7,698 nt of DNA from a virus (Duplodnaviria > Heunggongvirae > Uroviricota > Caudoviricetes): the IMG/VR virus record IMGVR_UViG_2734482594_000023. One strand, written 5' to 3'. The notes beneath the pieces were generated by a model. The model was not told where the DNA came from, made no database searches, and worked only from the letters and a program-made list of their open reading frames with translations. Of this stretch, positions 678 to 7,681 are shown piece by piece. Every line of letters begins with the position of its first letter. The stretch's first letter is position 1. The position numbers and the translations under genes are program-made.

Positions 678-1415
678 TCATTCACTCTCTTTCAAACCAG
701 TTTTAACTGTTTGTGGTTTTGGGTAAGGCTGGACTTTGAATAGCTTTGTGTTAAGGCGTTTTCTGGCTCTCTTGTCCAGAAACCGGATGTAACGAAACTG
801 ACGGAATTTATGAACACTGGCTCTGTCGATATTAGCCCGCAGATGTTCACCTCGCTGTCCTCCTCGTTTGATTGCATTCTTGCAAATCTCGTGATACCAC
901 TCGCCATCAAGTTCATAGAATGTTGTTTCATGACTGCCTACATAATCAAAATTGCTTGCCTGGTACACGACACCAAGACAGCCACAACGCTCATCTGCAA
1001 ACGACTGAACCCACTGCACCTGCGGATAAAGTTGTCTGATTAGTTTGAGCGCGTAACTGATTGCCCTTGATTCGGAGTTTCTCGGCATACAGTCATGCAG
1101 CCATAACCGGTTAAGCTCCATATATTCGCGGTTCTGCGTGCCAGTTACGACGCGTGCACCATTGTTTGGATTAAGGGCATAACCCCATTGCATTACGCCA
1201 ACCAGCTCCCGTTCTGAAAATATGCCCAGATGAAGGTAGGAATTATTTACGAAACGATGGCTGTAATGTTTATTGACGACGACCAGCCGGGCCAGCCAGC
1301 AACTTATTGTCTCAACCCGTAACTCACGGGAGCCATAACCGACGATATTGTCGTTATAGTGAATAAGTTCAGGCGTGCTGATGATACGGGATGTAACTTG
1401 CTTTCTGTTCCCCAC
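678..1415 (-). CDS. mom: Mom-family DNA modification protein (adenine carbamoylmethylation, acyltransferase-like); start codon uncertain
   Basis: The ORF lies immediately downstream of, and overlapping, a Com-type zinc-finger gene, as in phage Mu. The proposed GTG start at 1415 gives 245 aa, close to Mu Mom (about 231 aa as I recall), has AAGGAAA 7-9 nt upstream, and sits in the 3' arm of a hairpin. The ORF track extends to a GTG at 1610, which I regard as over-extended; an ATG at 1577 is an alternative. Confidence 0.75.
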
Positions 1416-1569
1416 GACAGGATTTCCTTGTGTATGTGGGGTGCTCTGTGGCGCTCTGAGATGTGATTTGATTGAGGGTTTTACAGCGCGGACATTTAAC
1501 TTCCAGATAACTGAAGCTGGCTCGTGCCAGTAGCTTGTTACAATGTCGGCACCGTATGTTTCGATACAT
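1369..1569 (-). CDS. com: Com-family zinc-finger translational activator of mom
   Basis: The 66-aa product [33 protein letters not shown]... has a CxxC...CxxC zinc-finger layout like Mu Com. AGGAGG lies 10 nt upstream of the ATG at 1569, and the 3' end overlaps the mom start region by about 46 nt. The track's TTG start at 1614 is rejected. Confidence 0.8.
1410..1441 (-). promoter_or_regulatory. mRNA hairpin sequestering the mom GTG start, with the Shine-Dalgarno in the loop (putative Com-responsive translational operator)
   Basis: On the minus strand, CCCCAC (1441-1436) pairs with GTGGGG (1415-1410). The 20-nt loop contains AAGGAAA, and the GTG at 1415-1413 lies in the 3' arm. Confidence 0.45.
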
Positions 1570-1610
1570 GGCCGCATAACCTCCTGCTTTGTTGTTGATA
1601 TCTTTATCAC

Positions 1611-1702
1611 TCAATCGATCGACAAAAACGATCGATTTGATTTATTTAATTGATACAACAAATAACACGAAATGTCATTAGCGAAAATTTATGAGTTTGA
1701 TC
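1611..1702. promoter_or_regulatory. AT-rich divergent control region upstream of com/mom with clustered Dam (GATC) sites and an inverted repeat
   Basis: GATC occurs at 1617-1620, 1630-1633 and 1699-1702. The imperfect inverted repeat TCAATCGATCG-ACAAAAA-CGATCGATTTGA spans 1611-1640. In Mu, mom transcription is controlled by Dam methylation of upstream GATC sites (OxyR binding) and by C-protein activation. Confidence 0.4.
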
Positions 1703-1825: not shown

Positions 1826-2119
1826 ATGGACAATCATGTAACGACGAGAAATCGAAAAATGATTGAAAATGCGGAAATCTATAATGATTATTTTTCCGAT
1901 TATTCAGATGCCTGCAAATACAGTTCGAGTGCGGGAGAGTTCATATGCTTCAACTTTTTTATTAAATCTTATGTTTTTCCTCCACAGCAAGAAGATGGAG
2001 GTGTGCCACCTCCTGAAATCACTTTGCACCGTATAGCCTCCGTCTCAATGATGGAGCAACAGGCTAATGAGCTGTATAGCATTCTGGGAACGATTCTACA
2101 AAAGCGTGAATCGGACTAA
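1826..2119 (+). CDS. Hypothetical protein, 97 aa (low-GC orphan gene)
   Basis: ATG at 1826 is preceded by AAGAGG at 5-nt spacing and the frame is open for 97 codons. The gene is AT-rich compared with its neighbours and divergent from com/mom. I recognise no motif. Confidence 0.5.
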   Translation: MDNHVTTRNRKMIENAEIYNDYFSDYSDACKYSSSAGEFICFNFFIKSYVFPPQQEDGGVPPPEITLHRIASVSMMEQQANELYSILGTILQKRESD

Positions 2120-2903: not shown

Positions 2904-4440
2904 TTACGCGTTATTCACTTCCACCACGATACTGTCAATCAGTACCGGGTAAGTCGCATTTTTAGTGATATCGGTCACGCGCAACTTGTCTGCCGTAAAC
3001 GTGCCGACCGGAGACTGCGACAGCATGAATGGTGTCCCGTCCTTACCATCAANNNNNNNNNNNNNNNNNNNNNNNNNNNNNNNNNNNNNNNNNNNNNNNN
3101 NNNNNNNNNNNNNNNNNNNNNNNNNNNNNNNNNNNNNNNNNNNNNNNNNNNNNNNNNNNNNNNNNNNNNNNNNNNNNNNNNNNNNNNNNNNNNNNNNNNN
3201 NNNNNNNNNNNNNNNNNNNNNNNNNNNNNNNNNNNNNNNNNNNNNNNNNNNNNNNNNNNNNNNNNNNNNNNNNNNNNNNNNNNNNNNNNNNNNNNNNNNN
3301 NNNNNNNNNNNNNNNNNNNNNNNNNNNNNNNNNNNNNNNNNNNNNNNNNNNTGAGCCTTGCCACCTCCGGCAGCCCAACCCTGTGGTGTCAACCGTCCTT
3401 CAGACTCAGATGCCCGGTAAGCAAATAGCGTACTCATCGTCGTGGTGTCTGCGGGTGGCGTGGACGGTTTTGATGGTGTATCAGGTGACGGCTTCTCATC
3501 CGGTGGTGTCACGGTCTGCCCACGCATCAGTTCAGCCGTGCGCCCTGCATGGAGCATAATAGCTGAGGCCAGACGGTCTGAAATGACGCCCCTGCGTGCC
3601 CATGAGCTGAAATGGCTGTCACGCTGTGTCGAAACAAAACTGCCCTGGGTTCGGGATGCTGCACCGTAATACCCGACAGCCACAATATCCGGGTCTTCCG
3701 CCGGAGCATTCGTTGGCGTGCNNNNNNNNNNNNNNNNNNNNNNNNNNNNNNNNNNNNNNNNNNNNNNNNNNNNNNNNNNNNNNNNNNNNNNNNNNNNNNN
3801 NNNNNNNNNNNNNNNNNNNNNNNNNNNNNNNNNNNNNNNNNNNNNNNNNNNNNNNNNNNNNNNNNNNNNNNNNNNNNNNNNNNNNNNNNNNNNNNNNNNN
3901 NNNNNNNNNNNNNNNNNNNNNNNNNNNNNNNNNNNNNNNNNNNNNNNNNNNNNNNNNNNNNNNNNNNNNNNNNNNNNNNNNNNNNNNNNNNNNNNNNNNN
4001 NNNNNNNNNNNNNNNNNGCGGTCAAACGAATCCGGTAACGGCAGCCCCTCGCCGTAGGCCATGCCATTTGACTGACCCGCGAGAATGACAACAAAGTAAT
4101 ATTCCGGCTCTGAACTGCTGCCATTCGTGCTACCGGAAGGCCCGGCGTTATCCGGTGCATTCCAGTCGGAGGGCGTGAGCGTTCCGGCCACGTCAGATGT
4201 GATTGGAATGATGCCAGTCACGCCTGAACTGGTGATTTCTGCACTGGGATTACCGGATACCGGCATTACCCATAATGGCTCTTTCGTGCTGAAGCGGATC
4301 ACGCAGTCTGCGAAGGTGATCCCCCCTTTATTACCCGAAGGGCGGAAAGGGCTTTCAATAAATGCCACCGTGCCACCGGCAACCTTGACTGAAAACTCTC
4401 CGGGCATGGCGGAGAGCATTTTCCACTTGGAGTCTGACAT
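2904..4440 (-). CDS. NanS-like sialate O-acetylesterase (SGNH/SASA-type) with an N-terminal extension and a C-terminal Pro/Thr-rich linker plus extra domain; frame ambiguous across masked blocks
   Basis: The N-terminal part (4440->4018) contains YYFVVILAGQSNGMAYGEGLPLPD, the GQSN nucleophile block of SASA/NanS esterases. After the mask, TNAPAEDPD...GYYG...SHFSSWARRGVISDR continues the esterase in a different frame, followed by TPPDEKPSPDTPSKPSTPP and a C-terminal region ending at the TAA at 2904. The span (1537 nt) is not a multiple of 3, so either a frameshift lies in 3722-4017 or the masking is not length-exact. Confidence 0.65.
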
Positions 4441-4544: not shown

Positions 4545-5136
4545 GGAGCTGGTGAGGCAGGAAAATAACGATAAAGGNNNNNNNNNNNNNNNNNNNNNNN
4601 NNNNNNNNNNNNNNNNNNNNNNNNNNNNNNNNNNNNNNNNNNNNNNNNNNNNNNNNNNNNNNNNNNNNNNNNNNNNNNNNNNNNNNNNNNNNNNNNNNNN
4701 NNNNNNNNNNNNNNNNNNNNNNNNNNNNNNNNNNNNNNNNNNNNNNNNNNNNNNNNNNNNNNNNNNNNNNNNNNNNNNNNNNNNNNNNNNNNNNNNNNNN
4801 NNNNNNNNNNNNNNNNNNNNNNNNNNNNNNNNNNNNNNNNNNNNNNNNNNNNNNNNNNTTGTCCGTAATGCTGCGGAAGTTAACGCCGCGTTGCCGGAGT
4901 TCTTCTGTTAAAAGGACAAGGTGCTGCATACTGCGTCCAAGGCGATCCAGTTTCCAGACCAGCAGGGTATCCCCTGGCCGGAGTCGCTTTAATGCGCGTT
5001 TAAGTCCGGGACGCTCCCTTGTCTTACCGCTTATTCTGTCTTCGAAAAACAGCTCACATCCTGCACATTCCAGCGCATTTCTTTGTAGCGCCGTATTCTG
5101 GTCATTTGTTGACACCCTGATATACCCAATCAGCAT
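4526..5136 (-). CDS. Site-specific DNA invertase, serine recombinase (Gin/Pin/Cin/Hin family); C-terminal frame differs from the ORF track
   Basis: The N-terminus MLIGYIRVSTNDQNTALQRNALECAGCELFFEDRISGK...LLVWKLDRLGRS is a canonical resolvase/invertase catalytic domain. Left of the mask, the frame reading LYRYFPASPAPSPKVP* (stop at 4528-4526) matches the Hin-type C-terminal helix-turn-helix tail (STLYRYFPAS). The track frame ending at 4474 is rejected. The span is not a multiple of 3 if the masked block is length-exact. Confidence 0.8.
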
Positions 5137-5430
5137 NNNNNNNNNNNNNNNNNNNNNNNNNNNNNNNNNNNNNNNNNNNNNNNNNNNNNNNNNNNNNNNN
5201 NNNNNNNNNNNNNNNNNNNNNNNNNNNNNNNNNNNNNNNNNNNNNNNNNNNNNNNNNNNNNNNNNNNNNNNNNNNNNNNNNNNNNNNNNNNNNNNNNNNN
5301 NNNNNNNNNNNNNNNNNNNNNNNNNNNNNNNNNNNNNNNNNNNNNNNNNNNNNNNNNNNNNNNNNNNNNNNNNNNNNNNNNNNNNNNNNNNNNNNNNNNN
5401 NNNNNNNNNNNNNNNNNNNNNNNNNNNNNN

Positions 5431-7123: not shown

Positions 7124-7681
7124 TCATGGCTNNNNNNNNNNNNNNNNNNNNNNNNNNNNNNNNNNNNNNNNNNNNNNNNNNNNNNNNNNNNNNNNNNNNN
7201 NNNNNNNNNNNNNNNNNNNNNNNNNNNNNNNNNNNNNNNNNNNNNNNNNNNNNNNNNNNNNNNNNNNNNNNNNNNNNNNNNNNNNNNNNNNNNNNNNNNN
7301 NNNNNNNNNNNNNNNNNNNNNNNNNNNNNNNNNNNNNNNNNNNNNNNNNNNNNNNNNNNNNNNNNNNNNNNNNNNNNNNNNNNNCGAGGGCTTCATCCGG
7401 TATTTATTTCCGGCATAACGCTGTCGCTCCGTGAGGGTGGCTCCGGCCATATCACACTCGGGAAGCCCGAGATAACGCTCCCAGTCTTCCAGCAGCAGGC
7501 GCGACGTGTCAGGGAAACGCTCGGCAAGCAGCTGTTTACCCGTCCAGGATACACGCGCTGTCGAATGACTGAGGCCCAGACATAATGATGCCAGTACGGA
7601 TGACGGACGCTTGTCCCATGCCAGCCCGTCAGGCAGTAACTGCAACAGGGCGCGCTGATGCGGGGTCAGGGTTACAGCCAT
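7124..7681 (-). CDS. Phage baseplate/tail protein (P2 gpI / Mu gp48-like, DUF2313-type); C-terminal half masked
   Basis: ATG at 7681 has AGGAGA 7 nt upstream. The N-terminus MAVTLTPHQRALLQLLPDGLAWDKRP...LLEDWERYLGLPE resembles the gpI/gp48 family. The gene sits directly upstream of the tail-fibre gene, as in P2 (I-H-G) and Mu (48-S-U). The TGA at 7126-7124 is in frame only if the masked block is length-exact. Confidence 0.65.
   Translation of the reverse strand: MAVTLTPHQRALLQLLPDGLAWDKRPSSVLASLCLGLSHSTARVSWTGKQLLAERFPDTSRLLLEDWERYLGLPECDMAGATLTERQRYAGNKYRMKPSXXXXXXXXXXXXXXXXXXXXXXXXXXXXXXXXXXXXXXXXXXXXXXXXXXXXXXXXXXXXXXXXXXXXXXXXXXXXXXXXXXXXXP

Follow-up and report, generated by a model that had tools for sequence, protein, structure and literature searches.

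A conserved GATC pair upstream of com-mom in a Mu-like Escherichia coli prophage: a probable Dam/OxyR operator in a layout shorter than that of Mu

The control region upstream of com and mom in a Mu-like E. coli prophage appears to be a shortened architectural variant of the well-known Mu system, and the palindrome at 1613-1637 is probably a Dam-methylatable OxyR operator half-site (gATCG-N7-CGATc) of com-mom. Judged from its sequence, the prophage thus probably gates its DNA-modification genes as Mu does, in a shorter layout that does without the Mu activator site. Control of Mom in Mu is a classic example of layered regulation, with Dam and OxyR, the C activator and Com each providing a layer. 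Mom itself is a toxic anti-restriction enzyme (for toxicity, see PMC3378877) that hypermodifies adenine in DNA (PMC13219725). All positions given below refer to the window, namely the whole stretch of 7,698 nucleotides that was analyzed, unless another locus is named, and the features considered are collected in Table 1.

Genomic setting, the GATC pair and its conservation

The window comes from a transposable, Mu-like prophage of E. coli, of which it represents the right end. Between 600 and 2300, it is 100% identical to many complete E. coli chromosomes, with a match being found in 233 of 5,426 complete genomes. In one matching genome, the entire element could be seen in a 49-kb locus (L003, comprising the whole prophage and its flanks) as a 39-kb Mu-like prophage inserted in dcyD. 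This prophage contains MuA- and MuB-like genes, gam, a Mor/C-family gene, Mu-type head and tail genes and an invertase gene, with com and mom at its right end. Prophage copies differ in their chromosomal insertion site (dcyD, garL-garP, xdhA or flgL), as is expected of a transposable phage. Both com and mom were identified through Pfam and PHROGs, and the regulatory region considered here immediately precedes these two overlapping genes of a Mu-like, transposable phage. The com product appears, from its domain match, to be the zinc-ribbon translational activator of mom, while the product of mom, which shares about 72% DNA identity with Mu mom, is named 'tRNA(Gly)-dependent adenine aminoacyltransferase Mom' in RefSeq.

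Table 1. Positions of the features considered upstream of com and elsewhere in the prophage. Positions are those of the window, except where L003 or L110 is stated.
Feature	Position	Strand	Remarks
mom	678-1415	-	245 aa; Pfam PF25680 Mom, E=7.8e-78; GTG start overlaps the 3' end of com
com	1369-1569	-	66 aa; Pfam PF10122 Zn_ribbon_Com, E=7.5e-13; PHROG 'gpCom control of modification'; RefSeq annotation
com Shine-Dalgarno AGGAGG	1580-1585	-	read from the sequence
Weak -10-like hexamers	1595-1609	-	TGaTAAAGA 1609-1601, AAAGAT 1605-1600, TATCAA 1600-1595; variable among E. coli relatives
Inverted repeat AATCGATCG-N7-CGATCGATT	1613-1637		9-nt arms, 100% complementary; GATCs at 1617-1620 and 1630-1633, 13 bp apart
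Candidate partner OxyR half-site ATTTGTTGTATCAAT	1649-1663	-	aligned to Mu ATAGAAAACGACGAT and agn43 ATAGAATAAAACGAT; GATC1 equivalent lost
Degenerate late-promoter box TTTCGCTAA	1678-1686	-	TATCAA (1655-1650) 22 nt later; alternative upstream promoter, less favoured
Third GATC, context AGTGATCAAA	1699-1702		69 bp upstream of the pair; non-CGATCG context
Exact late-promoter box TTCCGCAAA	4504-4512	-	TATTCT 22 nt later; upstream of the DUF6645-like gene
Late-promoter architecture sites	L003 4896-4904, 20861-20869, 29048-29056; L110 14129, 22047

Several features of this end of the prophage should be mentioned in their own right. The right end of the prophage lies at about 551 (TATAGCGCGGCG...) and is followed by three TTGATACC/TTGATACT repeats that resemble transposase-binding sites. 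In the flank, the minus strand of 1-459 holds the C-terminal part of an IS66-family-like transposase, such that this prophage copy lies in or beside an IS element. Five N runs, with 1,423 bases in total (3053-3351, 3722-4017, 4578-4858, 5137-5430 and 7132-7384), hide parts of the DUF6645-like, invertase and tail genes, and ORF calls that span these runs are unreliable. The com leader contains a (CAA)n run (1586-1596, minus strand) that is polymorphic in length, with three copies in the window and five in the CI5 type. At the GTG start of mom (1415-1413, minus strand), GUGGGG is predicted to pair with CCCCAC (1441-1436) in a hairpin that encloses an AAGGAAA purine tract; this hairpin (1413-1441) resembles the translation-inhibition structure that is relieved by Com in Mu, and its fold is not above that of shuffles (z=-1.3). 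The mom reading frame (678-1610, minus strand) is open for 310 codons, through all of com, and includes, at 1577, an in-frame ATG that follows the com Shine-Dalgarno sequence by only 2 nt and is probably due to chance, as the spacing is too short for initiation.

The original prediction placed GATC sites and an inverted repeat in an AT-rich region upstream of com, and this description was confirmed. GATC is found at 1617-1620, 1630-1633 and 1699-1702, i.e. at -51, -64 and -133 relative to the com ATG, with no further GATC between 172 and 2846 of the window. The GC content is 28% over 1611-1702 and 34% over the com-upstream intergenic region (1570-1825), and an OxyR-type core, ATCG-N7-CGAT, is found at 1618-1632, inside the repeat. 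The number of GATC sites is only marginally unusual, with at least three being present in 4.9% of composition-matched shuffles of the 256-nt intergenic region. A GATC pair at exactly 13 bp was, however, seen in only 0.27% of shuffles of this region, and GATCG-N7-CGATC in 12 of 200,000 shuffles (about 6e-5). The pair is also the only 13-bp-spaced GATC pair within the 49-kb L003, where no second copy of the exact repeat with two CGATCG cores was found, and GATC is under-represented in the window overall (11 sites vs. about 23 expected). The GATC pair and the palindrome are, therefore, clearly non-random, whereas the third GATC at 1699 is not distinguishable from chance.

The three Dam sites had been considered as one unit, a proposal that was not supported. 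The third GATC lies 69 bp from the pair and is not located at the position of Mu GATC1, at which the window presents AATT in a four-way alignment. It occurs in the window, CI5 and M3 types and is absent from the O157 type, in which the GATC pair is perfectly kept while unrelated DNA and a different divergent gene take the place of the segment with the third GATC. The third GATC thus appears to be outside the conserved operator. Between DUF826 and com, a divergent 97-aa ORF (1826-2119, plus strand, annotated as 86 aa) yielded no Pfam or PHROG match, and O157-type prophages present a different, frameshifted gene at its position. The region of this ORF looks like a variable cargo slot, of which the third GATC would be part.

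To describe conservation, com-mom loci were collected from species-representative genomes and from IMG/VR, and 32 distinct com-upstream sequences were extracted. The 13-bp GATC pair was found in every enterobacterial com lineage examined, about nine in number, including the Mu/D108/SfMu type, the Symbiopectobacterium/Pantoea type, Edwardsiella, several IMG/VR lineages and the E. coli type of the window, and was absent among these 32 sequences in marine and other non-enteric lineages. As the nine bases between the GATCs vary by lineage (gtttttgtc, ggtaataca, ataaacacc, gttaaaaca, aatattacc and others) while the pair is kept, the two GATCs and the distance between them appear to be under selection. 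The 11 distinct sequences of the E. coli type do not differ in either GATC or in the intervening bases, while the 12 nt just downstream are variable; one of the 11 (L050) carries a substitution directly 3' of the proximal GATC. The same 11 sequences share the block tatttgttgtatcaatt...aatcgatcgtttttgtcgatc with little or no variation. From these comparisons, the GATC pair, taken as methylation-sensitive, appears to be the most conserved part of mom control across enterobacterial com-mom modules.

In the Mom lineage that lacks com, no GATC cluster was found upstream of mom. This large lineage (L076-L109, L012-L015 and L018), which is about 68-70% identical and apparently derives from Yersinia/Serratia-type phages, must be regulated differently, having neither a recognisable com nor a GATC cluster. 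In IMG/VR, a ATCGATCG-N7-CGATCGAT palindrome was also observed near phage genes other than com-mom, often with the full 18/13-spaced GATC triad, namely in L117 (~5080-5130), L122 (~13110-13160), L135 (~11420-11470) and L152 (~10158-10200). Neighbours at such loci include, for example, a GT2 glycosyltransferase and a 460-aa tail-fibre-like ORF. This suggests that a Dam/OxyR cassette of the agn43/mom type may be reused before other phage accessory genes.

Likeness to the Mu, agn43 and gtr/opvAB operators

Window positions 1668-1606, agn43 and Mu Pmom are in register over about 50 bp in the four-way alignment, with at most one gap. The window sequence ATCGATCGTTTTTGTCGATCGAT is identical to ATCGATCGTTTATATCGATCGAT of K-12 agn43 (flu), i.e. 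the GATC-II/III segment, at 21 of 23 positions, and ATCGTTTTTGTCGAT (1632-1618) aligns to Mu ATCGGTAATACAGAT and agn43 ATCGTTTATATCGAT. On these grounds, the palindrome appears to correspond to the GATC2/GATC3 part of the Mu mom operator and to be near-identical to the GATC-II/III part of agn43. The segment at 1618-1632 presents a putative OxyR half-site that carries GATC, as judged from its ATCG-N7-CGAT form and its identity to agn43. It matches ATAGnTnnnAnCTAT at 7 of 10 positions, as compared to 8 of 10 for gtr A and C and for agn43.

The candidate partner half-site, which lies in a block shared without change by the E. coli variants, likewise matches ATAGnTnnnAnCTAT at 7 of 10 positions. 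The candidate half-sites are spaced by 31 bp in the window, 31 bp in Mu and 32 bp in agn43. Such spacing is regarded as canonical for reduced OxyR, and functional OxyR half-sites with a 7/10 match to the consensus are documented (PMC4856963). With a score of 14/20, the half-site pair ranks in the top three within the 49-kb L003, yet this score is reached by 18% of composition-matched AT-rich shuffles, such that assignment of the partner should be considered as tentative. For the same reason, statistical support from the full OxyR tetramer consensus was not relied upon.

In the P22 gtr system, binding of OxyR to its sites and loss of this binding upon Dam methylation were demonstrated experimentally (PMC2909390), while in the case of flu (agn43), OxyR binds and represses once methylation is lost (summarised in PMC12369378). 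Comparing the window to each of these systems reveals both shared and distinct traits. As in Mu, com overlaps mom, the operator is homologous and colinear, the GATC pair (GATC2 and GATC3 in Mu) is spaced by 13 bp in a CGATCG/GATCGATT context and a C-family activator is present, with that of the window-type prophage being encoded just before lys. Unlike the window, with its pair alone, the Mu operator contains three GATCs, which are found at -109, -91 and -78 relative to the com ATG; an arrangement of three GATCs spaced by 18 and 13 bp in one OxyR footprint is thus not seen here. Moreover, the Mu module directly follows gin, whereas in the window type, a C-box promoter, DUF6645, DUF1378, DUF826 and the divergent ORF are found between the invertase gene and com. 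The parallel to Mu proposed in the original prediction can, accordingly, be kept in one part and not in another: The region is a counterpart of the Mu mom Dam/OxyR region, given the colinearity over about 50 bp and the 13-bp pair, but neither the three-site unit nor the geometry is shared.

With agn43, the window shares the 13-bp distance (between GATC-II and GATC-III) and, as a candidate, an upstream partner half-site (32 bp off in agn43). The agn43 operator overlaps the core promoter/start region, rather than being upstream of an activator site, and the operator of the window would probably do likewise. According to the K-12 annotation, the leader RNA isrC starts at agn43 GATC-I. In contrast to the window, agn43 has three GATCs (spacing of 19 and 13 bp) and half-sites that each score 8/10, controls an adhesin of the host or of a cryptic prophage and has been proven to be phase-variable. 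The gtr genes of P22 and Salmonella, as well as opvAB, likewise present 13-bp GATC pairs flanking single ATCG-N7-CGAT OxyR half-sites, and, like com-mom, represent phage-borne accessory modification functions. P22 gtr half-sites with such pairs are ATCGGTAACAACGAT and ATCGCTTGTATCGAT, with A and C sharing the ATCG-N7-CGAT form of the window, and the GATCs of gtr OxyR(C) are found at -46 and -33, overlapping the -35 region. However, gtr relies on three half-sites and two alternative OxyR positions, one activating and one repressing, whereas in the window, a single half-site carries GATCs and no more than one weak partner is present, such that a gtr-like ON/OFF toggle is not evident.

Promoter geometry and the C-like activator

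In Mu, the GATCs are found upstream of a C site and of the -35 and -10 elements. This geometry is not supported for the window, as the pair is too close to com and leaves no room for a Mu C site. The com ATG lies 51 nt from the proximal GATC in the window and 78 nt from it in Mu, placing the window pair 27 nt closer, and the -10-like hexamers are 14-20 nt from this GATC, as compared to 46 nt for TAAGAT in Mu. About 29 nt are, therefore, missing in the window relative to Mu, which is the size of the C site; indeed, 14-20 nt cannot accommodate the ~30-bp site of Mu. The Mu interval between the operator and TAAGAT, as read from the Mu sequence, contains ACCACA, a 19-bp spacer and a T6 run. The hexamers ACCACA and TAAGAT are those that we take to be the -35 and -10 elements of Pmom. 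Pmom is described as having a poor -35 element, a suboptimal spacer and a T-stretch, with the C-binding site overlapping the -35 element (PMC3378877, PMC4461284). Between the operator and the -10-like hexamers of the window, no ACCACA, no T6 run and no copy of TyCCGCAAA were found, and the Mu arrangement of a C site between operator and -10, together with a poor -35, a 19-bp spacer and T6, is not seen. Relative to Mu, this appears to be a shortened architecture, from which GATC1 and the C-binding site have been lost.

The com-mom core promoter most likely lies within 1595-1609, to judge from the hexamers listed in Table 1. The candidate -10 and TAAGAT of Mu are at similar distances from the com ATG, and at the position of TATCAA in the window, L043 presents TATCAT. 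A sigma-70 consensus scan identified no promoter within 1500-2300 of the com strand, and conservation of the candidate -10 segment is poor among the E. coli variants. The short form is also found in Edwardsiella and in three IMG/VR lineages. These other short-form lineages contain near-consensus -10 elements (TATACT, TATAGT or TGaTAGATT) 11-13 nt after the proximal GATC, which would place the GATC half-site over the spacer/-35 region, as in gtr OxyR(C). The geometry thus argues for an operator that abuts or overlaps the core promoter.

As to whether a Mu C-like activator is encoded elsewhere in the prophage, a point raised along with the original prediction, such a gene was indeed found just before the lysozyme gene (L003 29059-29481, 140 aa). 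It is not part of the window, but of prophage copies that are identical to the window over 600-2300, the region compared. Its product (WP_000852372.1) is the one Mor/C-family protein encoded by the prophage and is 40% identical to Mu C and 28% identical to Mor. A late-promoter architecture, TyCCGCAAA-N22/23-TAnnCT, is found at Plys, at PI (protease I gene) and upstream of the DUF6645 gene, and L003 contains five exact copies of TyCCGCAAA, all on the late-gene strand. This box is probably the target of the C-like activator. In the O157-type prophage, this box is likewise found at Plys and PI, and its DUF6645 gene is preceded by a near-match (TAACGCAAA, followed after 22 nt by TATGAT). A promoter composed of the degenerate box TTTCGCTAA and TATCAA (1655-1650) was also considered and is kept as no more than a minor alternative; the O157 type lacks the box upstream of com, and the 12-mer match behind this assignment is at chance level, given the number of comparisons.

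Proposed mechanism, competing explanations and meaning

In the mechanism that we infer for the window, covering OxyR binding, its sensitivity to methylation, the position of the promoter and the direction of regulation, an OxyR tetramer would bind the half-site with both GATCs unmethylated, together with the weaker partner about 31 bp upstream (1649-1663), and com-mom transcription would be blocked. Dam methylation of the two adenine pairs would prevent OxyR from binding and leave the promoter free, and Com would then allow translation of mom. With a -10 element within 1609-1595, the GATCs would be found at about -45 to -22, and OxyR would act by direct occlusion, as at agn43 and gtr OxyR(BC), and not from an upstream position. 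That the operator would sit on or against the core promoter follows from the absence of the ~30-bp C-activator site between the operator and the -10 element.

Other explanations need to be considered. It is very unlikely that the window follows Mu exactly, with all three GATCs forming one OxyR site upstream of a C-activated promoter and with derepression being exerted from a distance. While the Mu operator does contain three GATCs, as does the window, and while the prophage encodes a C-like activator, the GATCs are spaced by 69 and 13 bp in the window as compared to 18 and 13 bp in Mu, AATT replaces GATC1 and O157-type relatives that keep the pair lack the third site. Furthermore, the C site cannot fit into the 14-20 nt between the pair and the -10-like hexamers (46 nt in Mu), and no copy of the late-promoter box exists between the pair and com. 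The loss of GATC1, the degenerate partner half-site and the variable promoter region would also be compatible with the pair being an evolutionary relic, inherited from a Mu-like ancestor and no longer involved in regulation, with com-mom being controlled by an activator only or by read-through plus Com. We consider this to be unlikely, as the pair and the bases between are invariant in the 11 distinct E. coli-type sequences despite the variable immediate flank, and as several divergent short-form lineages keep the pair while differing in the bases it encloses, whereas a neutral palindrome would be expected to decay.

The perfect dyad symmetry of the repeat could also point to a different protein, such as SeqA acting on hemimethylated pairs after replication, the C-like activator or another dimeric regulator. 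SeqA prefers two GATCs that are about one helical turn apart. At opvAB, which is controlled by OxyR and Dam, SeqA acts as an ancillary factor (PMC4856963). Nonetheless, binding by a protein other than OxyR seems rather improbable: OxyR is specifically indicated by the close match to agn43 and by the colinear alignment with the Mu operator, and SeqA binding would add to OxyR control and not exclude OxyR. As for the C-like activator, the repeat was ruled out as its site, since the repeat is unique in the 49-kb L003 and the late promoters share a different box, TyCCGCAAA. Finally, the repeat may act as RNA, forming a hairpin in the leader of com or, on the plus strand, an intrinsic terminator. 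A consensus scan did call a plus-strand terminator-like element, with a 9-bp stem followed by TGATTTATTT, and the isolated hairpin is predicted at -11 to -12 kcal/mol on either strand. However, the fold of the 101-nt leader is no better than that of shuffles (z=-1.3), no Rfam match was obtained, and the stem consists always of GATC tetramers across lineages, with no compensatory non-GATC pairs and with a T-run in only some lineages. As a plus-strand terminator would, in addition, stop only those transcripts that are antisense to mom, both the terminator and the structured leader RNA were rejected, and a role as RNA is extremely improbable.

Returning to an OxyR operator at the core promoter, the state of the lysogen needs to be considered. 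A promoter that requires no late activator would be expected to drive constitutive com-mom transcription in a dam+ lysogen, which is hard to reconcile with Mom toxicity (PMC3378877). Either an activator input has gone unrecognised, or OxyR would keep the sites unmethylated in the lysogen, as in the OFF state of agn43. A fuller version of the latter, in which com-mom would behave like agn43 or gtr, with a heritable OxyR-protected OFF state in lysogens and a switch to ON that occurs stochastically in a subpopulation or when replicative transposition outpaces OxyR, is doubtful and, on balance, unlikely. If true, stochastic switching would render Mom modification of host and prophage DNA phase-variable. 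In the replicative route, Dam would methylate the two sites, and replication, rather than an activator, would serve as the late-timing signal.

What the shortened layout means is best seen from its distribution and its likeness to host systems. A widespread E. coli prophage lineage (233 of the 5,426 complete genomes) does without the activator site and one GATC, and its layout resembles that of host phase-variation switches. If confirmed, com-mom of this lineage would offer a simpler natural system for addressing how Dam and OxyR time or diversify phage anti-restriction, and would raise the question, for Mu as well, of whether mom expression may be phase-varying.
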